Assembly: GCA_023259685.1 (NCBI GenBank)
Contig: JALRGP010000001.1
Location: forward strand, 1-32,281
Source of the DNA: Alphaproteobacteria bacterium
GTDB taxonomy: Bacteria; Pseudomonadota; Alphaproteobacteria; JALRGP01
Reading direction: 5' to 3'
DNA length: 32,281 nt
In this document: positions 97 through 31,905 of the stretch, in pieces
How the letters are laid out: each line of letters begins with the position of its first letter
Position numbering within the stretch: the stretch's first letter is position 1
Made by a program: the position numbers and the translations under genes
Notes under the pieces: model-generated
What the model was told of the DNA's origin: nothing
Database searches by the model: none
What the model saw: only the letters and a program-made list of their open reading frames with translations

Positions 97-414
97 CTAC
101 TCAAGACCTTTTAAAAAGTGAGGGGTAGCGTGATCAGTGTTGTTAAATGTGTCTTCTTTGAGCTCGCTGAGCTTGAGTTTATGAGCATCCACTGGTGTTA
201 TTTCTCCGGATTCATTAAACAAAAAGCGATTAATATAGCGTTCTTTTGATTTTTTATCACATTCATGAGAATGACAACTTCTGGATTGTAAGGCTGTGGC
301 AGCCAAATCAGCAAGCCCTTTTACTTTAGCTTTATTCAAAACTGTACGACGTTTTTTTAAATCATCTTCTAAGGACTTGGCAATGTGAGTGGCACCACCT
401 GTGAGCAGTTTCAT
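97..414 (-). CDS. hypothetical protein (105 aa), no recognisable family
   Basis: Intact 105-codon ORF, co-oriented with tgt and 131 nt downstream of it. Charged, helical-looking composition with no motif I can name. Confidence 0.35.
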   Translation of the reverse strand: MKLLTGGATHIAKSLEDDLKKRRTVLNKAKVKGLADLAATALQSRSCHSHECDKKSKERYINRFLFNESGEITPVDAHKLKLSELKEDTFNNTDHATPHFLKGLE

Positions 415-544
415 TTTATAGTTATTTTTCTAAAATTTTCCCTATTTTAACAGACACTTTTTCTATTTACAAAAAATCGTCAGGTGGTAAACTGCTGGCG
501 TCTCACTCGTTAAATAATACTTTACCTGTCATTGAATTAACTTA

Positions 545-1663
545 CTATTCACTATTTTTAATTTGTTCTCTTATGTCTTGCATAAATTTATTCATAAAGT
601 ACACATTATGAATAGACAACAATGTGTAAGCAGTCATTTCTTTTGCCTTAAGTAAATGGTGGATGTATCCTTTGCTGTAGGTATGGCATGTTTCGCAGCT
701 GCAACCAAGCTCTATAGCCGAGTCATCTCGTGCATACATAGAATTTCTCAAATTGATATGTTCTTTGTCATGACCATTCACAAGAGCGCCCCCGTGACGT
801 GCTAAACGCGTAGGATGAACACAATCAAATGTATCAATGTTTTCCTTCACCCCATGGGTAATATCGCTTAGACCTCCGATTCCTAATAAATGAACAGGGC
901 GCTCGCAAGCCATATGACTCATTGTCATGGACACGACATCATGCATTTGAGATTTACTTTGTCCCAAAGATCCTCCAATGGCAACACCAAAAAAAGCATG
1001 TTCTTGCACAAACGTCATAGATTCTTTTCTGAGATCGTCATAAACACCTCCTTGGACAATTCCATACAGCCTTTGGGCAGGGGCGTCTAAAACATTTAAA
1101 CAACGTAAAGCCCACCGGTGACTGCGTTCCATTGATGATCTCGTATAAGATTTTTCGACGTGAAAGGGTGTGCACTCATCTAAAACAACAATGAAATCTG
1201 CCCCTAAATTTTGCTGAATGCGAATAGATTCTTCGGGAGTCAGGTGATACATACGCCCATCAATATATGATTTAAATAATGCTCCGTCTTCATTAATAGA
1301 CAACATTGTTTGAGGTCGATGAGACATGCGTTTGCCTTTAATTTCACTGGCTACAGAACCATGCCCTAAGCTAAAAATTTGAAATCCACCAGAATCTGTC
1401 AACATAGGGCCATTCCATCCTGTCATTTTTTGAAGACCTCCCAAATCTCTGACAACTTCACTAGACGGCTGCAGCATTAAATGATAGGTATTGCTTAAAA
1501 TAATTTGTGTTTGACTATGTTTGACTTGCGCAATTGTCATAGATTTCATAGCTGCTTTGGTTGCGCAAAAAATAAAAGCAGGCGTTTCAATGTCACCATG
1601 AGGAGTTCTTAATAGCCCTAAACGTCCTTTTGACGTTTTTTTTATAATTTTAAAGTCAAACAA
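545..1663 (-). CDS. tgt: queuine tRNA-ribosyltransferase (tRNA-guanine transglycosylase)
   Basis: 372-aa ORF with a TTG start at 1661-1663. N-terminus RLGLLRTPHGDIETPAF, catalytic LTDSGGFQIFSL, and zinc site LGCSCETCHTYSKGYIHHL (CxCxxC..H) are all hallmarks of bacterial Tgt. Confidence 0.93.
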   Translation of the reverse strand: MFDFKIIKKTSKGRLGLLRTPHGDIETPAFIFCATKAAMKSMTIAQVKHSQTQIILSNTYHLMLQPSSEVVRDLGGLQKMTGWNGPMLTDSGGFQIFSLGHGSVASEIKGKRMSHRPQTMLSINEDGALFKSYIDGRMYHLTPEESIRIQQNLGADFIVVLDECTPFHVEKSYTRSSMERSHRWALRCLNVLDAPAQRLYGIVQGGVYDDLRKESMTFVQEHAFFGVAIGGSLGQSKSQMHDVVSMTMSHMACERPVHLLGIGGLSDITHGVKENIDTFDCVHPTRLARHGGALVNGHDKEHINLRNSMYARDDSAIELGCSCETCHTYSKGYIHHLLKAKEMTAYTLLSIHNVYFMNKFMQDIREQIKNSE

Positions 1664-1831
1664 TTTGCCAATCTATTGATTATGTTTTTTTTATTATAGT
1701 TGGCAAAAAGCATTATGTCATTGGCATGTGCACATCTTGTTATGATAAAAATATATTTTATCTAAAATCTAGTTATTTAATTTTTTTAATTTGATAATCT
1801 AAGTAAAATGAGACATATATATATATTTAAA

Positions 1832-3259
1832 ATGATTGAACAAAGACATCGTTTTGCAAAAATTATTGCAACTATTGGTCCCCAAAGTTCAGATTTTTCC
1901 ACAATAGAGAATCTGTTTCTAAACGGTGTTGATGTTTTTCGGTTAAATTTTTCCCACGGCACCCACAATCATCATTCAGCAGCATTTGAATCAATCAGGC
2001 AAATTGAAAGTAAACATCAATGTCCTATTGCCATTGTCGGTGATCTTCAAGGGCCCAAATTCCGAATTGGAGAATTTAATGAATCTTTTGTTTCATTAAA
2101 AGAAAATCAGACATTCGATCTTTGTTATTCCTTAGGGATTGGAGATCATACAAAAGTTGGTCTTCCTCACCAAGAATTATTTACAGCTCTTCATGAAGGA
2201 GATTTTATCTATTTGCGTGATGGTTTAATTAAGCTGCAAATTATTAAAAAAGATGATGATATTTTAAAAACACGTGTTTTAAACCATGGAGATTTGGGGT
2301 CTAAACAAGGTGTCAATGTCCCAGGTGTTTATATTCCTTTGAACGTATTAACTCCCAAAGATCATGAAGATTTGGAATTCGCTTTGGCGTTGGGAGTGGA
2401 TTGGATTGCATTATCATTCGTTCAAATCCCCAAAGACGTCCAACAAGCCAAAACACTCATTCAAGATAAGGCTAAAATTATCGTCAAACTTGAAAAACCA
2501 AAAGCCATTCAATCGTTAGAACATATTGTTAAAATATCTGATGCCATTATGATTGCCAGGGGGGATTTAGGAATTGAAATTCCTCCAGAAAATGTCCCCA
2601 TTGTTCAAAGACAAATTATTCGCACCTGTCGTCGTTTATCAAAGCCCGTCATTGTGGCTACCCAAATGTTAGAATCCATGACGCATTCACCTTCACCAAC
2701 GCGGGCAGAGGTATCTGATGTGGCAACCGCTATTTATGAAGGCGTTGATGGTGTGATGTTATCTGGGGAAACTGCCATGGGAGAATACCCTTTGAAAGCA
2801 GCAGAAATGATGGATAAAATTATTAAACGTGTTGAGCAAGATCCTTTGTATAAAAAAAATTTGCATCATATGCAACCTAAATTACTTTATACAATTTCTG
2901 ACAGTATGGCTGCGGCTGCCAGGGAAATTTCTTCTTCGATTTCTGTCAGTGTCATTATTCCTTTTACAGAAACAGGAGATACCGCCATTCGCATTTCAAC
3001 GCAACGCCCCAGCAGCCCCATTTTATCCTTAACCCCATCCCTTAAAACATCCCGATTTCTTGCAATGATTTGGGGAATCAGATCTGTGATGATTAATCAA
3101 ATCAGTGCAATGGACGATATGATTTATACATCACACACCATTGCTAAAAAACTTAATTACGTGCAGCTGGGGGATTTAATGACAATTGTTGCGGGGATGC
3201 CTTTTGGGCAAGCAGGGATGACCAATTTAATTCGTATTGAAAAATGTACAACGGAATGA
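1832..3259 (+). CDS. pyk: pyruvate kinase
   Basis: Motifs AKIIATIGPQS, RLNFSHG, GPKFRIG, MIARGDLGIEIP and ATQMLESM. The ORF opens at 1808, but the ATG at 1832 (MIEQRHRFAKIIATIGP) gives the canonical N-terminal spacing. The stop abuts the stop of the convergent pabC-like gene with no spacer. Confidence 0.92.
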   Translation: MIEQRHRFAKIIATIGPQSSDFSTIENLFLNGVDVFRLNFSHGTHNHHSAAFESIRQIESKHQCPIAIVGDLQGPKFRIGEFNESFVSLKENQTFDLCYSLGIGDHTKVGLPHQELFTALHEGDFIYLRDGLIKLQIIKKDDDILKTRVLNHGDLGSKQGVNVPGVYIPLNVLTPKDHEDLEFALALGVDWIALSFVQIPKDVQQAKTLIQDKAKIIVKLEKPKAIQSLEHIVKISDAIMIARGDLGIEIPPENVPIVQRQIIRTCRRLSKPVIVATQMLESMTHSPSPTRAEVSDVATAIYEGVDGVMLSGETAMGEYPLKAAEMMDKIIKRVEQDPLYKKNLHHMQPKLLYTISDSMAAAAREISSSISVSVIIPFTETGDTAIRISTQRPSSPILSLTPSLKTSRFLAMIWGIRSVMINQISAMDDMIYTSHTIAKKLNYVQLGDLMTIVAGMPFGQAGMTNLIRIEKCTTE

Positions 3260-4000
3260 TTAGGCTGTCTTCAAATTCAACAGCCGAATGCCTCTTAAAC
3301 TATTAATCATAAAAATTGAGGAGGCTGTATGAAGATCATCAATTGTGATGTTACGCTCGTGAATTTTTTTTGATTCAATGAGATGTTGACGCATGATCCC
3401 ATCCACGCATCCTGATTTTAAATAGGGTGTCAAAAAACGTTGATCATGAGTTTGAATCACAACATTACCAACGGTCGTACAACATACATCTCCTTGGTCA
3501 TTTAAGATGATTGTATCTTGGTATAGGGATTCCATCCTTGATAAAATCTCAGTCATATAGTTTAATTTTTTAACGGGAGATAAAGGATCTTTTGAAAATC
3601 TCATTATTCTTGATACGTCGCATGTCAAAGCATTGTTTAGATCTTTCAAAAAATCATTCTCAAAATCATGAATCCATGGTTCTGAGATGCTGTCAACAAT
3701 CGTATAAAGTTGTGGTGTCAAATGGTGATTAAGAAGTCCGCGTTGTTCTTGGATGCCACGCGTGACGATCAATTTAATTGCACATGGATATGGATAATCC
3801 TTGCAAGAGTCATGAATGTGATGCCACAAAAAATGATCATCCCACATAAATGGAATTTTAAAAAGATCCGCACTTTTTTTAAGACGCTTCACATGGCTAT
3901 CAAAAAAGAAGGGCTCTTGGTCATAGCGAACAGTTGTAAAAAAACCATCACCAAATAAAAAACCTCTGTCTTTAATGGAAATGGTGTGAGTTTGAATCAT
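3260..4000 (-). CDS. pabC: fold-type IV PLP enzyme, aminodeoxychorismate lyase-like
   Basis: N-terminal DRGFLFGDGFFTT and the lysine motif VKKLNYM are typical of class IV aminotransferases. At 246 aa it fits ADC lyase better than BCAT or D-amino-acid aminotransferase. Its ATG (3998-4000) overlaps the TGA (3997-3999) of the upstream MFS gene. Confidence 0.7.
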   Translation of the reverse strand: MIQTHTISIKDRGFLFGDGFFTTVRYDQEPFFFDSHVKRLKKSADLFKIPFMWDDHFLWHHIHDSCKDYPYPCAIKLIVTRGIQEQRGLLNHHLTPQLYTIVDSISEPWIHDFENDFLKDLNNALTCDVSRIMRFSKDPLSPVKKLNYMTEILSRMESLYQDTIILNDQGDVCCTTVGNVVIQTHDQRFLTPYLKSGCVDGIMRQHLIESKKIHERNITIDDLHTASSIFMINSLRGIRLLNLKTA

Positions 4001-5190
4001 CTTTTTTTCTTAGATGTGCAGATGTATTTTTGGCATACTACAAAAACACACAAACTAACAAATGATATTGCGCAACCATACACAAACGTAAACCTGACCC
4101 CAAAACCATCCATCAAAAATCCAGCAATTTGTGATGACAACATATATCCAATGGCATTGATAAGATGAAAAATACCGTCAGCTGTCCCACGTAAATGTCT
4201 GGGGATTAAATCCGCAATCATGATAATGAACATACTTTGAGTGACGCCCAATTGAACACCCCATAAAACACAACTGAGTAAAAATGTATTTTTTTCTGCT
4301 CCTGCGAACAATAGTATGTCGGCGACGATCATCATCGCCATTCCAAATCCCAACAACACATGACGATTAATTTTGTCTGATAATCTTCCAATAGGGTAAG
4401 AAATAATCGATGATGCACCATTATACAAAACCGCAATATAAGGGATAAAACTCATTTCAATGTCAAAATTTTTCTTTCCGTGAAGAATGAGAAACGCTTC
4501 TCCTAAACGTGCCAACATAAATAAAAATGATATGCCCATTAATATCCAATATTCATGGCCTAGGGATGAAATGTCTTTGAAGGACATTTTTTTCTTTTGG
4601 ATATTTGATGGTGATTCAAAATCATGAACAAACAACATTAATAATACCAATCCCAATACAGCTGGAATTGTTGCAATCCAAAATACAACTGATAAATCAT
4701 CATGTGTTTTTTTAAGTAAAAAACTTCCCAATATACCACCAGCAACCGATCCAGCCGTGGCGAGAGTTTGTCTAAGCCCATAAGCTCTGCCCCGTACGCC
4801 CGGCAGCGCAAGGTCGCCGACCAATGCATCCCGCGGGGTTGCTTGAATACCATTGCCAATACGATCCAAAATTCGACTGATAAAAACATTCCAATAGCTC
4901 ATCTGAAGAGCCATGATCGGGCGTGCCAAAACACATAATCCAAATCCAACAACCATGATCCATTTCCGTTTTTGCAGGACATCACTCATCAAACCCGATA
5001 ATAATTTGACAAGATAGGATGCACTTTCCATGATCCCTTCTAAAAATCCAATGGCTGCGCCGCCAACTCCCAAAGATACATTCAAATAAACAGATGTTAA
5101 AGAAAATAAAATAACAGACGAGACATTTAAAAAGAAACTGGCAATTCCAATGACCCATATACCTTTTGGAATATTTAAATACCCTTTCAT
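3997..5190 (-). CDS. MFS transporter
   Basis: Multi-span hydrophobic profile and an MFS motif-A-like loop (SGLMSDVLQKRKW; also DRIGNGIQATPRDAL). The track ORF extends to 5373. The first 61 codons are non-hydrophobic and run into the ftsH upstream region. The ATG at 5188-5190 (MKGYLNIPKGIWVIG) is the plausible start. Confidence 0.85.
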   Translation of the reverse strand: MKGYLNIPKGIWVIGIASFFLNVSSVILFSLTSVYLNVSLGVGGAAIGFLEGIMESASYLVKLLSGLMSDVLQKRKWIMVVGFGLCVLARPIMALQMSYWNVFISRILDRIGNGIQATPRDALVGDLALPGVRGRAYGLRQTLATAGSVAGGILGSFLLKKTHDDLSVVFWIATIPAVLGLVLLMLFVHDFESPSNIQKKKMSFKDISSLGHEYWILMGISFLFMLARLGEAFLILHGKKNFDIEMSFIPYIAVLYNGASSIISYPIGRLSDKINRHVLLGFGMAMMIVADILLFAGAEKNTFLLSCVLWGVQLGVTQSMFIIMIADLIPRHLRGTADGIFHLINAIGYMLSSQIAGFLMDGFGVRFTFVYGCAISFVSLCVFVVCQKYICTSKKKR

Positions 5191-5444
5191 TACACATATA
5201 TAGACGGCTCCATATTCTATTAAAGCCTTTTGATAGAAAAAATCAAGCGCGATTGTGATGCAGCAGCAGTTTTCATTTTGGCTAAAATTCCTAATAAAAT
5301 AGAAATGCAAAGGTTTTAAATACCCTGTTTTCTGGTTCAAAATGAAAATTGCTGCCGACTCCAACTTACACAATACATAGGATTTTTTTTATCTTATGTT
5401 ACAATAAATATGGAAGGGTTAGTTCTTTTTTTTACAACACGTCA

Positions 5445-9480: not shown

Positions 9481-11196
9481 ATGAAAAAAAAATATTTAAT
9501 TACGAGTGCACTTCCTTACATTAATGGAATAAAACATCTTGGTAATTTAGTTGGATCTATTTTACCTGCTGACATTTATGCAAGATTTTTAAAACAATCT
9601 GGCCATGATGTTCTATTCATCTGTGGAACAGATGAACATGGAACACCTGCTGAAATAGCTGCCCATGAAGCAAATATTTCTATAGAAGATTATTGTTTAA
9701 AAATGCATGACTTGCAAAAATCTATTTATAAGAAGTTTGATATTAACTTTGATTATTTTGGACGTAGTTCAGATCTTTCTAATCATGATCTGACTCAAAA
9801 AATTTATAAAAAATTAAAGGAAAATAACTGTATTATTCAAACAAACATCAATCAGTATTATTCTCACTTTGACAAACGTTTTTTACCAGATCGTTATATC
9901 GAAGGACAATGCCCATTTTGTGGTTTTGATAAAGCTCGTGGAGATCAATGTGATGGATGTTCTCATTTACTGAGTCCAGAAGATCTAATATCGCCCTATT
10001 CTTCCATCAGTGGCAGCACTGATATTGAACTTAAATCTACAAAACATCTTTTTATTGACCTGCCAAAAATACAAGATCAATTAAAAACCTGGGTTGATAG
10101 CCGAACAGAATGGTCTGATCTGGTGACAGGCATTGCACACAAATGGTTAAAAGAAGGTTTGCAATCCCGTTGTATTACCCGTGATTTAACATGGGGTGTT
10201 TCAGTGCCAGAAGACGGTTACGAAGGAAAAGTTTTTTACGTATGGTTTGATGCGCCAAACGCTTATATCAGCATCACAAAAGATTGGGCAAAACAACACG
10301 GTGATCATACAGAATGGGAAAAATGGTGGTTAAATTCACAAGAATCTGTACACTACACGCAATTTATGGCAAAAGATAACGTACCTTTTCATGCGATTTT
10401 TTGGCCATCCATTTTATTATCTGCGGATATGGGATTTAAACTTGTGGATAATATTAAGAGTTTTCACTGGCTGACCTATGAAAAAGGAAAATTTTCAACA
10501 AGCCGAAAAAGGGGGGTCTTTACGGATCAAGCTTTGGAATTGTACAGCGCTGATTATTGGAGGTATTATTTAATTTCAAATTGTCCTGAGACGTCTGATT
10601 CCGATTTCAGTTTCACGCATTTTGCCTCCGTTGTGAATAAAGATTTGGCAGATATTTTGGGAAATTTTTTAAACCGCACACTGTCTCTCATAGCCAAATA
10701 TTATGACGGTCAAATACCTTGTACATTGGACAGTCATTTAATAGATAGAACATTGTTAAGCCAGGCCAGTGAGATTGTAGGTGAGATTCATAAAAATCTA
10801 TCAGCTCTTAAATTTAGACCAGCCACACAGATGTTGCGTTCATTATGGGTTTTGGGTAATACCTACATCACCACCCATGAACCATGGACTGTTTTAAAAC
10901 ATGATAAAGACGCTGCTGGCGTTGTTCTGACCCATTGCATTCATATGCTCAAGGTGTTTGCCGCTGTGAGCCATCCATTCATCCCAAAAACGTCATCTCA
11001 TATTCTAGATCTTCTTAATGATCCTGATTTTGATAAAAAAGATGAGCTGTCATGCGACAATTGTCTGGATTTTACCTATTTCAAAGCAGGTCACCTTATC
11101 AAAGCCCCACAAAGATTATTTGAAAAAATAGATGATGAAACAGTTAAAAATTTGGCGGATAGATTTTCAGGAACCACTAATGCGAACCATGAATGA
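9481..11196 (+). CDS. metG: methionine--tRNA ligase (no C-terminal tRNA-binding extension)
   Basis: HIGH-type motif (PYINGIKHLGN), zinc knuckle CPFCGFDKARGDQCDGC and KMSKS-type motif KFSTSRKRG. Length 571 aa. Confidence 0.95.
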   Translation: MKKKYLITSALPYINGIKHLGNLVGSILPADIYARFLKQSGHDVLFICGTDEHGTPAEIAAHEANISIEDYCLKMHDLQKSIYKKFDINFDYFGRSSDLSNHDLTQKIYKKLKENNCIIQTNINQYYSHFDKRFLPDRYIEGQCPFCGFDKARGDQCDGCSHLLSPEDLISPYSSISGSTDIELKSTKHLFIDLPKIQDQLKTWVDSRTEWSDLVTGIAHKWLKEGLQSRCITRDLTWGVSVPEDGYEGKVFYVWFDAPNAYISITKDWAKQHGDHTEWEKWWLNSQESVHYTQFMAKDNVPFHAIFWPSILLSADMGFKLVDNIKSFHWLTYEKGKFSTSRKRGVFTDQALELYSADYWRYYLISNCPETSDSDFSFTHFASVVNKDLADILGNFLNRTLSLIAKYYDGQIPCTLDSHLIDRTLLSQASEIVGEIHKNLSALKFRPATQMLRSLWVLGNTYITTHEPWTVLKHDKDAAGVVLTHCIHMLKVFAAVSHPFIPKTSSHILDLLNDPDFDKKDELSCDNCLDFTYFKAGHLIKAPQRLFEKIDDETVKNLADRFSGTTNANHE

Positions 11197-27640: not shown

Positions 27641-28092
27641 GATACATTAAAAAATATCAGAATTATTATTGATTAAATCAATAAATAATTAAAAAATAGT
27701 TAATTTTTTACTTTTTTATGACAAGTATTTTTGTAAATTTACACCCCAATGTTCTGTGGATAAACGTTTGAACAACATTGATTAAACTGTGTGAACAAAC
27801 TGTGTATAAAAAATTGTACACACATTACAACGTTTAATTAACACAGTTATTCACATATTGTTGAAAAGTAAAAAAAATACTTAGAAAAATTAGTTATTTT
27901 TTAAGTAAAAGATTGTGGATAAGTGGGTTTTTCCACAAATTCACAGGCCCAACAACAACAAATATTTATATATTTATATTATTTGTATGGAAAAATTTTC
28001 CTTTAAAATTAATAATTCATTAACCATTTTTAAACTTTTCGTTAATAAAAACTCTGCCATCTTAAAAATGTTCAACTTAAACGAGTTTTTTT
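27641..28092. other. candidate chromosomal replication origin (oriC): DnaA-box cluster flanked by A/T-rich putative unwinding tracts
   Basis: 452-bp non-coding spacer between divergent genes, with seven DnaA-box-like 9-mers in 27755-27937 (see next feature). The flanks 27641-27740 and 27950-28090 are about 85-90% A+T by eye. TTAA-N7-TTAA motifs occur at 27689-27703 and 28009-28023. Confidence 0.5.
27755..27937. promoter_or_regulatory. DnaA-box cluster (2 perfect, 3 consensus-class and 2 near-consensus boxes)
   Basis: Perfect TGTGGATAA (the complement of TTATCCACA) at 27755-27763 and 27914-27922. TGTGTATAA at 27801-27809 and TTATTCACA at 27847-27855 fit TTATNCACA. TTTTCCACA at 27929-27937 fits TTWTNCACA and forms an inverted pair with the 27914 box across a 6-nt spacer. 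TGTGAACAA at 27790-27798 and TTGTACACA at 27814-27822 are one step off the loose consensus. Confidence 0.8.
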
Positions 28093-31000
28093 ATGAAACA
28101 ATCCATTAGAGTCCTTGCGACAGGACTCTCGCTGAGCTGTGCCGCATTTGCAGTTCAGACAACATCTAGCTTGCTAGGCTTCCCTAGTCAATCCACAGAT
28201 TTCGCAAGAGCGCAAATTATTAAAAATCAATTAGGCGCATCCAGTACAGAAACAGTCGAACAAAAAATCGACAGTATTCGTAGATCCATCAGCTCAAATG
28301 CTAGCACTGTATCTCAAGGCGTTGAAAGTGTCAGAAAATTACTAAGGTCGTCAACCGATAGCCTTCGTCAACAATTAACGCGTTCTTTGACAATTTTGCA
28401 AACTCAAAATTCCACGATTACCGATGAATTGAAAGAAGAAATTGAACAAATCCAAAAACAAATTGATTTGTTAGCACCCGCATTAAATACAAACGATCTT
28501 TTCAGTATTATTTCCCAATTAAATACCAAAGTTGGTGGAAAATCTGGTGAAGACCTTATCACACGTTTACATAACATACAATTGTTTATTGATGGACAAT
28601 CCAGCATTGATGGACAATCCAGCAGTGATATTATTACATCTTTGATTAAATTTCAAAATATTTTGGATCCAAATCCAGCTAATGCATTTACGTTTAATCA
28701 ATCCAAAACAACGAATTTACTTGAAAAATTGAATAGATCTAACGATAATCTTGGCGGAACAGGTGCCGGTATTTTGGGAAGAACAGCTTTGTTAAAAAGC
28801 TTGTTAAACAAAAAATCCACACTTGATATGTATTCAATTATCAATGAATTAATGGGACGTGTTGGTGGTTTTTCTCAAGACATGAGCACACGTTTAGACG
28901 CATTATCTAAACTTGTTAATGGAATGAATGGAACATCTTTGACAAATTCTTTGGAAGCAATTTCTCAAAATATTGGTCTTGGACAAGGTGAAAATTTACA
29001 AACAGTTTTGCCCGATATTATTACAAAAATCAGCAGCACAACCGGAGTTCAAGGAACATTGATGTCAATTGTTGACAAATTTTCCCAAGCCTTGAACCAA
29101 CGCATTGGAATATCTGGTTCGAATACGCAAGAAAAATTAAACAGAGTATTCTCAGAATTACAAGGCCAAGGTAACGTTGGTGGTGATCTTCAAACAATTA
29201 TTAATAGTGTTAATAACAACCTAAGCGGTAACACATTAAAAGGGACGACCAATTTGTTATTGGATGCTCAAGATATGTTGCGTCAAGGATCTAGTGGTCT
29301 TGGAAATGTTTTAGATCGTATTATTTTATCTTTGCAATCAACGGTCAAAAGGCAAATTGGTGGTTTGACATTATTGGATTTGTTAACAGATGCACAAGCT
29401 GGTATTTTCTCTCTGACTGGAGGATCTGCATTTGATGGTGTATCATACAGTTTGTTTGAAAATTTATCAAACCTCAGAACATTGGTCGATCCAACAGCAG
29501 GAAATTCAACACTTTATGAACTGTTGGTGAATAACTTTAATGATGTTTTGGGTGGTAATCCATACAGTTCAACAAACGGATTGTATCAAAACCTTAGAAA
29601 CATGTCATTGCTTTTAAAAGGTCAGGCAAAATCCACATCACAAACAGATATTACAAACTTTATCAGAGTTAATATGTTTGGTCTGATGGGTGGTCAACCA
29701 TTTTCAACAACGACATCACCATTCAATGGTGTATATGATTCTTTGCAATTAATTCATGACGCCGTCACAGGTCGAACATCAGACATTTCTTCCAATACAA
29801 TTATTGATTCTTTGAATAGAGTACAATCCTTACTTTGGAATAACTTGTCAGGTTCGCAAGCAAGTTCTGGAAATATTTATTCAGATTTAACAAGTTTGAA
29901 TCGCTTGTTTGAATACGCAAATGGTGGAAAAAGTTTAGCTGAAATTCTGTTTACAGATATCTCTCCTTTGTTAAAATGTGGTTTTGCAAATGGAGAAGGT
30001 GTGTATGAAATTTTGGTTCAAATCATGCAAAACCTTAACCCGCAAAGTTCATTAAATCTTTTTGAATTAACTGGAAGTGCTTCAAACTCAAATAGCATTC
30101 CTTACTTGATTGGTGGCGGTACGAATACAGTCAGTATCTACAAAAGATTAAAAGATGTTCAATCTTTCCTCAGAAATGGTTCAACGTCATCTCTTCAAAC
30201 AATCGTAACCCAAGATATGAATGATATTATCGGTGGTGCCTCAATTGTATCGGGTGTTAACAGTTTGTTTGACAATTTGTTTAATATCTCTAATCAATTG
30301 AAAAATTATCCATTTATGGGAACCTCATCAAACATTACAACATTGGTGGGACAAGCATCAAAAATGTTAACAGACGAATTGACAGGTATTTCCGGTATCA
30401 ACAGTTCTTCACTGAGTTTGCCACAAGCAACATCCAGTGTTAAAGGTGTACTTGGATATGGGTCAAATAAATCATTGATGAATCAGATCGTAGGATCTGC
30501 TATTAATGATAGCGTTCTAGCTGATTTAAATTTGAACTCAACCCGTGATGTTAAAACAGCCATTAACCGTTTACGTAACTTTATTGGAAACGAATATACA
30601 GAATCGAGCATCCAAAATATGTTGATATCTAAACTTGCAACATCTGGCGTAAAAGGTCACCTAGAAGGAAACGGACCTAACGGAAACAGTAGTGCTTCCA
30701 TTCATGATGCAATCCAAAATATTAGAACATTACTTGGTTATATAAACTATGGAACTAACCTTTTAGATAACGTATCCAATAAAAATGCAAATCGTGGTAT
30801 TGTTGGCGATCTAGTTGGTGGATCCTTGGTCAACGGTAATACGGTCAGCGCTAACATTAATGCCATTAAACGTGCAATTTCTCCCGCAGTTAATGGTTAT
30901 ACAAGTGCGAATGTCTATGATTTAATTACAAAAGAATCGGTCACATCTGGTGTGCTTGGAGATTTGGGGGTTCCAACAGAATCTGCACAAACCGTTAAAG

Positions 31001-31842
31001 AAGCAATCACATTCTTAAGAAACAGATTAGACCAAGGATCCATCCAAGGAATTCGAGGTATTATCCAAAGTATTCAAGGGTTAATGGGATATCCACAAGA
31101 TGATGATTCATGCTTTGGTGGGAATGGTACAGATATGAAACAAACAGTTGTTGCGATTAGAAATTACTTATCTAATCACCCAACACAAACTGTTATTGAT
31201 AGAATTACCAATATCAAAGGATTATTGTCTGTAAGCACCACCGATGATATTGAAGTACGCATCAAAAATATCTTGATGACACTTCATGCAAATCAATCCG
31301 GTGTTGTTGCCAATGTATTGACGGATATTTACGACAGAGTTGGTGATTCTCCAGATTGTGGATCTCAATCAATTCTTGACAACGTGAAAGCTGTTCAAGA
31401 TAAAATTGGTGTGGGAGATACAACGACGAATCCAAATTCCGTATTTTCAGGTTTAAACAACTTTGGAGAATTGATTAAAACTGGCTTCACTGCAAGTGGT
31501 GAAACATTGGTTCAATCAATTACCGAATTTAATCAATACCTTGGTACACCAACAACTTATGATGCCCTTAATTTTGGTAACATGTTTTATTCTGGTGGAT
31601 TCACATTAACGTCTCAAACTTTGTCAAGAGCCATTGGTACGAATCAAGATGATATCACCAGTGATACATTATACGGATATATGAATGGTATTAATACGCA
31701 AGTTCAAACATTAAAAGGATCTGGATCTGCAACGTATACAAAAGTGACTATTGATCTACCAGAAAGTGGTTTTACGAATACAACAATTTTAGATTTCTTG
31801 GGTGATATTTATACCAAGTTATCAACAGGTGTAGCATCGTAA
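28093..31842 (+). CDS. lineage-specific secreted or surface repeat protein (1249 aa) built from degenerate ~35-45-aa helix-Gly-helix modules
   Basis: Uninterrupted 1249-codon ORF. Sec-type signal MKQSIRVLATGLSLSCAAFA|VQ (AxA site). Residues ~50-130 look like coiled coil. From ~130 to ~1130 a module recurs, e.g. NDLFSIISQLNTKVGGKSGEDLITRLHNIQLFIDG, LDMYSIINELMGRVGGFSQDMSTRLDALSKLVNG, STLYELLVNNFNDVLGGNPYSSTNGLYQNLRNMSLLLKG, SLQTIVTQDMNDIIGGASIVSGVNSLFDNLFNISNQL and RGIVGDLVGGSLVNGNTVSANINAIKRAISP. Composition is N/S/T/G/L/Q-rich. There is no RTX nonapeptide and no C-terminal aromatic OMP signature. Confidence 0.85.
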   Translation: MKQSIRVLATGLSLSCAAFAVQTTSSLLGFPSQSTDFARAQIIKNQLGASSTETVEQKIDSIRRSISSNASTVSQGVESVRKLLRSSTDSLRQQLTRSLTILQTQNSTITDELKEEIEQIQKQIDLLAPALNTNDLFSIISQLNTKVGGKSGEDLITRLHNIQLFIDGQSSIDGQSSSDIITSLIKFQNILDPNPANAFTFNQSKTTNLLEKLNRSNDNLGGTGAGILGRTALLKSLLNKKSTLDMYSIINELMGRVGGFSQDMSTRLDALSKLVNGMNGTSLTNSLEAISQNIGLGQGENLQTVLPDIITKISSTTGVQGTLMSIVDKFSQALNQRIGISGSNTQEKLNRVFSELQGQGNVGGDLQTIINSVNNNLSGNTLKGTTNLLLDAQDMLRQGSSGLGNVLDRIILSLQSTVKRQIGGLTLLDLLTDAQAGIFSLTGGSAFDGVSYSLFENLSNLRTLVDPTAGNSTLYELLVNNFNDVLGGNPYSSTNGLYQNLRNMSLLLKGQAKSTSQTDITNFIRVNMFGLMGGQPFSTTTSPFNGVYDSLQLIHDAVTGRTSDISSNTIIDSLNRVQSLLWNNLSGSQASSGNIYSDLTSLNRLFEYANGGKSLAEILFTDISPLLKCGFANGEGVYEILVQIMQNLNPQSSLNLFELTGSASNSNSIPYLIGGGTNTVSIYKRLKDVQSFLRNGSTSSLQTIVTQDMNDIIGGASIVSGVNSLFDNLFNISNQLKNYPFMGTSSNITTLVGQASKMLTDELTGISGINSSSLSLPQATSSVKGVLGYGSNKSLMNQIVGSAINDSVLADLNLNSTRDVKTAINRLRNFIGNEYTESSIQNMLISKLATSGVKGHLEGNGPNGNSSASIHDAIQNIRTLLGYINYGTNLLDNVSNKNANRGIVGDLVGGSLVNGNTVSANINAIKRAISPAVNGYTSANVYDLITKESVTSGVLGDLGVPTESAQTVKEAITFLRNRLDQGSIQGIRGIIQSIQGLMGYPQDDDSCFGGNGTDMKQTVVAIRNYLSNHPTQTVIDRITNIKGLLSVSTTDDIEVRIKNILMTLHANQSGVVANVLTDIYDRVGDSPDCGSQSILDNVKAVQDKIGVGDTTTNPNSVFSGLNNFGELIKTGFTASGETLVQSITEFNQYLGTPTTYDALNFGNMFYSGGFTLTSQTLSRAIGTNQDDITSDTLYGYMNGINTQVQTLKGSGSATYTKVTIDLPESGFTNTTILDFLGDIYTKLSTGVAS
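28588..28623 (+). repeat. perfect 18-bp tandem duplication (ATTGATGGACAATCCAGC x2) encoding IDGQSS-IDGQSS
   Basis: Read directly: 28588-28605 and 28606-28623 are identical and in frame within the 1249-aa gene. Confidence 0.95.
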
Positions 31843-31865: not shown

Positions 31866-31905
31866 GGGGAACCTCTCGTTAGGGAGGCTCCTCTTTTATT
31901 TTTTA
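31866..31905 (+). terminator. intrinsic terminator of the 1249-aa gene
   Basis: GGGGAACCTCTC-GTTA-GGGAGGCTCCTC hairpin: 12 stem positions with one A-C mismatch, two G-U pairs and a GTTA loop. It is followed by TTTTATTTTTT and lies 24 nt after the stop. Confidence 0.7.

Follow-up and report, generated by a model that had tools for sequence, protein, structure and literature searches.

A DnaA-box cluster beside a Bacillus-like unwinding module marks a candidate replication origin in a Holosporales-like alphaproteobacterium

The DNA considered here is an entire contig of a draft assembly (JALRGP010000001.1; 32,281 bp), referred to below as the window, and all contig-wide counts and ranks cover these 32 kb. 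Its longest intergenic region, a 452-bp spacer of 22% GC at 27641–28092, is probably the origin (oriC) from which the chromosome of a Holosporales/Paracaedibacteraceae-like alphaproteobacterium is replicated, a reading to which we give a probability of roughly 70%. The spacer contains a dense cluster of DnaA boxes and, beside an inverted box pair, a near-copy of the DnaA-box#6/#7 and GGCCC segment of the Bacillus subtilis origin, a perfect trinucleotide repeat and the weakest duplex of the contig. A preliminary description of this DNA had proposed a candidate oriC at this place; the proposal is strengthened because these last three elements adjoin the inverted pair, while the CtrA-type motifs that it listed turn out to lie close to chance expectation. 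From this anatomy we infer that DnaA would bind here, that the adjoining DNA would unwind and that the site would serve as the sole origin. The spacer is 78% AT, compared with ∼65% for the contig, and it recurs base for base in the independent Logan assembly of SRR19514063.

The spacer was scanned with the perfect box TTATCCACA (a box on the minus strand reads TGTGGATAA on the plus strand) and with the looser consensus TTATNCACA. It contains nine boxes: two perfect, three with one mismatch and four with two mismatches (Table 1). All of the boxes in the preliminary description were recovered where it had placed them, including the inverted pair at 27914/27929 with its 6-nt spacer (GTGGGT). The two perfect boxes are 159 bp apart from start to start, in agreement with the ∼160 bp given there; the 183 bp within which both were said to lie is instead the span of the five best boxes. 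Such a cluster is indeed very unlikely to arise by chance. Over 20,000 first-order Markov simulations that kept the composition of the spacer, the mean numbers of perfect boxes, boxes with at most one mismatch and boxes with at most two mismatches were 0.006, 0.20 and 2.6, against 2, 5 and 9 observed; no simulation contained two perfect boxes, none contained five boxes with at most one mismatch, and the probability of nine boxes with at most two mismatches was 0.0012. Every other 200-bp window of the contig has at most two boxes with up to one mismatch, and the spacer is the only intergenic region of the contig with any such box.

A second inverted pair (27801/27814) is separated by 4 nt, and the 27790 and 27801 boxes share one orientation with 2 bp between them, the double-box spacing which is favoured for cooperative DnaA binding (PMC11317965). 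Of 39 unrelated metagenomic loci with the pair TGTGGATAA-N6-TTTTCCACA, at least 9 have it adjoining dnaA or dnaN. The spacer holds four matches to TTATNCACA together with TTTTCCACA, where at least four boxes in an intergenic region of 200–1000 bp are looked for under the Ori-Finder/Ioannidis criteria; the features by which Ioannidis and Brassinga recognise an alphaproteobacterial origin (a length of 200–1000 bp, at least four TTATNCACA boxes, enrichment over other intergenic regions and high AT) are for the most part found here. Scanning metagenome DNA with the specific pattern of the right-hand module described below gave no matches, and a looser inverted-pair pattern gave 120 loci, none of them from a relative. 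A viral scan with the module core returned two GC-rich matches, which we judged to be chance.

The basal unwinding system (BUS) of B. subtilis oriC is reported, in work by Richardson in 2016 and Pelliciari in 2021 and 2023, to consist of DnaA-box#6 and #7, a GC cluster, DnaA-trios and an A/T-rich 27-mer. On the right of the spacer the plus strand reads, in order, TGTGGATAA (27914), GTGGGT, TTTTCCACA (27929), AATTCACA, GGCCC, CAACAACAACAA (27950–61) and ATATTTATATATTTATATTATTTG. When the segment 27929–27950 (TTTTCCACAAATTCACAGGCCC) is set against the B. subtilis scaffold of DnaA-box#6/#7 and GC cluster (TTATCCACAAATCCACAGGCCC), 20 of the 22 bases are identical, and none of 100 shuffles of the contig reached three or fewer mismatches. 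The wild-type B. subtilis scaffold used in strand-separation assays reads ACTTATCCACAAATCCACAGGCCC and then TACTATTACTTCTACTA, followed by the A/T-rich 27-mer (PMC6669920, PMC8287927). In a BUS the first box, with at most two mismatches, faces the unwinding region, as TTTTCCACA does here; the second, with at most four mismatches, abuts it, strand separation by DnaA needs the boxes as well as the trios, and the second box is followed by a GC-rich spacer of ∼4 nt. The co-oriented abutting box of the spacer together with GGCC gives a distance of 12 nt, where at most 16 nt are allowed and 12–13 nt are typical, and no BUS layout is predicted more often across phyla than this succession of a box, an abutting one and 4 nt of GC spacer, 12 nt altogether. 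The first box of the module is the same as that of Deinococcus radiodurans and the second the same as that of Megasphaera elsdenii (Pelliciari Table S1).

The trios of B. subtilis (top strand CTA CTA TTA CTT CTA CTA) start on the final C of GGCCC, and the (CAA)4 repeat of the spacer begins at the same base. Perfect four-unit trinucleotide repeats number two in the contig, against 0.18 expected. The least stable 31-mer of the contig, from computed duplex stability, begins 8 bp past the GC cluster, so that an A/T-rich element adjoins the boxes; the iterated ATATTTAT-type motifs which had been proposed as an unwinding element are real and lie inside it. The trio strand of the repeat, read 5' to 3' as TTGTTGTTGTTG, holds three TTGT motifs of the TT[G/A]T(T) type, by which DnaA of Escherichia coli attaches to the upper strand once the DNA unwinding element (DUE) is unwound (PMC10316083), and the polarity of this strand relative to the box is that of the E. 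coli upper strand relative to box R1 (E. coli row of Pelliciari's table). The (CAA)4 array would thus be a DnaA single-strand-binding element of E. coli flavour inside a Bacillus-type scaffold. At the other end of the cluster, the left perfect box faces outward to an A/T tract over an 11-nt spacer containing CCCC. This tract probably carries the promoter of the 837-aa gene on the left as well, and no trinucleotide array was found at it.

We envisage that DnaA would occupy the high-affinity boxes at 27755, 27801, 27847, 27914 and 27929, and that weaker neighbouring boxes, for example in the 27790/27801 pair, would be filled cooperatively. The co-oriented abutting boxes (27929–27945) would anchor a DnaA-ATP oligomer, which would reach over the GGCCC spacer to one of the two strands of the (CAA)4/(TTG)4 array, and the adjacent A/T-rich DNA at 27958–27988 would open for helicase loading. 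Both flanking genes would then be transcribed co-directionally with the two forks.

A bolder and more tentative proposal is that the (CAA)4 array may be a working non-canonical DnaA-trio, combining the BUS scaffold (box, box and GGCC) with a central-thymine 3'-GTT-5' repeated four times (5'-TTGT-3' repeated), at an origin relocated between orphan effector-like genes of a protist-symbiont-like alphaproteobacterium. We regard this as possible rather than probable. A 'deviant DnaA-trio' was reportedly anticipated by Pelliciari et al. If the proposal is true, one element would be read out both as the DnaA-trio of B. subtilis and as the TT[G/A]T(T) motif of the single-stranded DUE of E. coli, and the locus is a natural test case for the strictness of the central adenine of the DnaA-trio. 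If the spacer is oriC, a replication origin would be located for an uncultured Holosporales-like alphaproteobacterium, the oriC of the lineage would have left the hemE neighbourhood which marks the described alphaproteobacterial origins, and the assembly would gain an anchor for coverage-based growth-rate estimates and for contig orientation. An unannotated oriC in a draft genome is unsurprising in itself; the locus is well-formed and slightly unusual.

Several observations weigh against an origin at this site. The canonical DnaA-trio rule (at least three NAN trinucleotides with central adenine, over a spacer of at most 16 nt; the accepted trio set is given in PMC10316083) fails at the main module, because the trio strand (its 5' tail is directed away from the boxes) reads 3'-GTT-5', with a central T instead of the A of the consensus 3'-GAT-5'. 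In B. subtilis, replacing the central adenine, which contacts Asn187, with thymine lowers strand separation and origin activity, cytosine being tolerated (PMC10721633). We have not filed the spacer as a canonical BUS, because the scaffold half is present but the trio sequence is not of the accepted kind. A minimal run of three canonical trios (AAG TAA AAG) does lie 2 nt 5' of the 27914 box, on the correct strand; it is given little weight and may be a chance occurrence, because the loose rule of three consecutive NAN trinucleotides is passed by about half of random A/T-rich flanks (∼48%).

No IHF site, strict or loose (WATCAANNNNTTR or WATCAN5WTR), and no GANTC or GATC site was found in the spacer. 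The two TTAA-N7-TTAA (CtrA-type) motifs noted earlier do bracket the box cluster, and their significance is near chance (two in the spacer against 0.32 expected, P = 0.045; four in the contig against 3.4 expected). The GC skew, taken over the whole sequence and at 4-fold sites split by gene strand, is flat, with a replicative component of about −0.03; to the right of the site lie 4.2 kb with one gene only. Pfam scans of all 26 open reading frames (ORFs) of at least 80 aa revealed no dnaA, dnaN, hemE, gidA or parAB, COG1806 is also without trace in the contig, and hemE is absent for 27.6 kb leftward and 4.2 kb rightward of the site. An adjacent indicator gene is common at oriC, though not obligatory. 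Two promoters must also fit into the spacer. Three further perfect TTATCCACA boxes lie within genes (metG, glutaredoxin and hisS), and the uniqueness of the cluster holds for this contig only, so that an equal or better cluster elsewhere is possible. Finally, no orthologous spacer was found among the relatives' loci examined.

As to the intragenic boxes, three perfect and two with one mismatch are located at 10443, 10632, 11961, 12091 and 24073, four of them inside 1.65 kb at 10.4–12.1 kb. They may reflect an enrichment of boxes near the origin or a genome-wide bias; the relatives' loci, ∼97 kb together, contain only one perfect box.

The gene context bears on these points. The preliminary description had stated that the flanking genes are transcribed away from the spacer, that they are lineage-specific and that none of the five indicator genes named above is nearby, and all three statements hold. 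The left gene encodes a protein of 837 aa, for which there is no homologue in any database searched and no Pfam or NCBIfam family; the 1249-aa protein on the right has four related representatives only among 1.84 billion proteins, and likewise no Pfam or NCBIfam family. The host appears, from its nearest named FtsH and HisRS relatives, to be a Holosporales/Paracaedibacteraceae-like alphaproteobacterium of ∼35% GC. All of the best named FtsH relatives belong to Alphaproteobacteria (63% for Ca. Finniella inopinata and Ca. Odyssella thessalonicensis, 61% for a Paracaedibacteraceae metagenome-assembled genome (MAG)), and most named HisRS matches agree with this placement. When a genome collection was scanned with HisRS, the best match reached only 41% identity, so that neither the host genome nor a close relative is represented there. 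The context is thus as unconventional as had been suggested, since the described origins of this class abut hemE (PMC1914354). A chromosomal location is supported by the native codon usage, by the lack of plasmid or phage likeness and by the housekeeping genes of the contig (ftsH, metG, hisS, pyk and tgt, together with lptA, lptB, mlaE, tamB and fabG); an IS4-type transposase is also present.

In the closest relative (HisRS 74%, FtsH 90%) hisS is flanked by an rRNA operon and wza-like genes, and a DnaA-box cluster was found neither at that locus nor at four more distant hisS loci. The hisS–prfA adjacency kept in Finniella, in the Paracaedibacteraceae MAG and in an ENA contig is broken in the window, and hence a rearrangement breakpoint lies directly beside the candidate origin region. 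Synteny around ftsH–lptA–lptB also stops after three genes. The lineage is highly rearranged, with synteny blocks ∼3 genes long, and for this reason the unusual gene context loses some of its weight. As separate observations, hisS at 327–5250 of the closest relative's locus (L023), in the stretch with these coordinates, lies divergently beside a complete 16S-tRNA-tRNA-23S operon, and at 23855–25126 of the window a convergent orphan gene follows hisS.

The alternative which survives best is that the spacer is a non-origin reservoir or titration locus for DnaA, of the datA, DARS or B. subtilis DnaA-box-cluster type, which tunes initiation at an origin elsewhere. We consider this unlikely. Model bacteria do have dense box clusters away from oriC, among them six intergenic ones in B. 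subtilis, and a titration locus would sit well with the lack of an indicator gene and of a skew signal here. It would also suit the unusual frequency of perfect boxes in the contig, three more of them in genes, because of which the genome may hold several box clusters. However, titration sites need no co-oriented abutting pair, GC spacer, trinucleotide array or adjacent stability minimum, which together make up the experimentally defined unwinding module of oriC. The E. coli datA and DARS loci depend on IHF, whereas the spacer has no IHF site and does have the module-like arrangement and the stability minimum. We know of no datA- or DARS-type locus described in Alphaproteobacteria, which also counts against titration.

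It is quite unlikely that the boxes are instead the operators of a DnaA-controlled divergent promoter, tying the expression of two genes for secreted or surface proteins to the cycle of replication. Because both genes start at the edges of the spacer, both promoters must lie within it, and a promoter scan did give weak sigma-70-like matches, though not above shuffles. E. coli DnaA regulates promoters through box pairs 2–3 bp apart (PMC11317965), and one such pair, 27790/27801, is present. The 1249-aa gene also has an ACGAG-T7-ATG leader (ACGAG(G)TTTTTTTATG) before its start codon, common to a 48%-identical homologue (P0241). Known DnaA operators, in contrast, contain one or two boxes rather than nine, and some 300 bp of the spacer exceed what promoters would need, since the other divergent spacers of the contig measure only 144 and 158 bp. 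In addition, the module faces an unwinding-prone tract, and the targets would be orphans with no tie to replication or nucleotide metabolism. A promoter role and an origin role can coexist. The BUS-like module, the (CAA)4 array and the stability minimum lead us to favour oriC over both a titration site and an operator.

It is very unlikely that the spacer is the origin of something other than the main chromosome, such as a former origin stranded as a relic after rearrangement, or one that came with an integrated plasmid or other mobile element: the hisS–prfA adjacency is broken exactly here, both flanking genes are lineage-specific, an insertion sequence lies 9 kb off and the 25–28 kb region is the poorest in GC within the contig, but in codon usage and in GC content at third codon positions (GC3) both flanking genes look like the rest of the contig, Pfam scans of the contig ORFs found no Rep, partition or mobilisation gene, no iterons were found except the DnaA boxes themselves, no plasmid or phage record resembles the spacer or the genes, and two perfect boxes with an intact module speak against decay. 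A mobile-element origin was accordingly rejected on the native codon usage and the lack of plasmid or phage similarity.

Table 1. Features of the candidate origin and its flanking genes in window coordinates (a full stop in the strand column marks a feature without strand).
Feature	Position	Strand	Basis
Whole spacer, candidate oriC	27641..28092	.	between divergent genes
Left flanking gene, 837 aa, signal-peptide-like N-terminus, native codon usage	25127..27640	-	
Left A/T tract, fourth least stable 31-mer of contig, holds the first TTAA-N7-TTAA	27680..27710	.	
First TTAA-N7-TTAA (CtrA-type)	27689..27703	.	
CCCC cluster, 7 nt outside left perfect box, mirrors GC cluster of right module	27744..27747	.	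read directly
Perfect DnaA box TTATCCACA	27755..27763	-	box scan
DnaA-like box TTGTTCACA, 2 mismatches (1 against TTATNCACA)	27790..27798	-	box scan
DnaA box TTATACACA, 1 mismatch	27801..27809	-	box scan
DnaA-like box TTGTACACA, 2 mismatches (1 against TTATNCACA)	27814..27822	+	box scan
DnaA box TTATTCACA, 1 mismatch	27847..27855	+	box scan
Weak DnaA-like box TTTTCAACA, 2 mismatches; new relative to the preliminary description	27859..27867	-	box scan
AAG TAA AAG, minimal three canonical DnaA-trios	27903..27911	+	
Perfect DnaA box TTATCCACA, left arm of inverted pair	27914..27922	-	box scan
DnaA box TTTTCCACA, 1 mismatch, faces right A/T tract, counterpart of B. subtilis box#6	27929..27937	+	
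Abutting co-oriented weak box AATTCACA, counterpart of B. subtilis box#7 (AATCCACA)	27938..27945	+	
GC cluster GGCCC, identical to B. subtilis GC cluster	27946..27950	.	
Perfect (CAA)4 repeat at DnaA-trio position; trio strand 3'-GTT-5' x4 = 5'-TTGTTGTTGTTG-3'	27950..27961	.	
Proposed DNA unwinding element with three tandem ATATTTAT-type 8-mers (27962–27985)	27958..27988	.	
Weak DnaA-like box TTTTCCATA, 2 mismatches, past the DUE; new relative to the preliminary description	27986..27994	-	box scan
Second TTAA-N7-TTAA (CtrA-type consensus), weak significance	28009..28023	.	
Right flanking gene, 1249 aa, signal-peptide-like N-terminus, native codon usage	28093..31842	+	
Scaffold written out with (CAA)4-complement tail for strand separation: TTTTCCACAAATTCACAGGCC			

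Some further observations concern the spacer and the genes around it. Nothing credible in the way of a small ORF or RNA was seen in the spacer, where the search gave short junk ORFs and a single Rfam match below threshold, and a contig-wide scan found no tRNA and no Rfam family. Three contigs from three assemblies that carry homologues of the 1249-aa gene all begin 17–18 nt before the start codon, and upstream of this gene the relatives' DNA, too, seems difficult to assemble. A 778-bp ENA contig (ERZ21849424) encodes at 407–754 an N-terminal fragment (P0244) with 86% identity to the protein on the right flank; the 406 bp preceding it would be expected to represent the orthologous spacer in a close relative. 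Just 3' of the 1249-aa gene, at 31866–31905, there is a GC-rich hairpin with a T-run after it (GGGGGAACCTCTCGTTAGGGAGGCTCCTC TTTTATTTTTT), which is likely an intrinsic terminator, and non-coding DNA makes up the final 439 bp of the contig. Farther away, the IS4/DDE_Tnp_1 transposase (18451–19242, minus strand) abuts a methyltransferase-like ORF (19248–20555), which may be imported cargo because it is an outlier in codon usage and GC3 (0.47 against 0.22–0.34 in other genes). The ftsH ORF as listed (662 aa, with a TTG start at 5349) shares 25 nt (5349–5373) with the end of the MFS gene upstream of it, and FtsH of the 90%-identical relative has 630 aa; the true ftsH start probably lies ∼30 codons downstream of the listed one.

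Set beside known systems, the spacer is like the E. coli loci datA and DARS, and like the B. subtilis DnaA-box clusters, in having dense intergenic boxes away from dnaA. Those loci are without an unwinding module or DUE, whereas the module-like arrangement of the spacer adjoins the weakest duplex of the contig. With the origins of Caulobacter (Cori), Rickettsia and Wolbachia (Brassinga 2001; Ioannidis 2007) it shares the host class, an intergenic length of ∼400 bp, an AT content above the genome average, 3–5 boxes of the TTATNCACA type and the presence of TTAA-N7-TTAA motifs. It differs from them in being flanked by two orphan genes rather than by hemE, COG1806 or COG1253, in having no IHF site and in its CtrA-type motifs, which are not significantly enriched; its boxes are also stronger and more numerous than those of Caulobacter Cori.

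The likeness to E. coli oriC lies in the separation of the origin from dnaA, in the double box with 2-bp spacing and in the TTGT motifs on the strand running 5' to 3' into a TGTGGATAA-like box, with the same polarity as the E. coli upper strand. Unlike E. coli oriC, the spacer has no IHF site, GATC cluster or 13-mer repeats, and its boxes form mainly inverted pairs rather than two opposed arrays. In comparison with the B. subtilis BUS, the host is an alphaproteobacterium, the site lies away from dnaA and dnaN, and the trio strand reads 3'-GTT-5' instead of 3'-GAT-5', the central adenine being gone. The two agree in the abutting co-oriented boxes with GGCCC, where 20 of 22 bases match, and in the spacer of 12 nt; the trinucleotide array starts at the same base and an A/T-rich region comes next.

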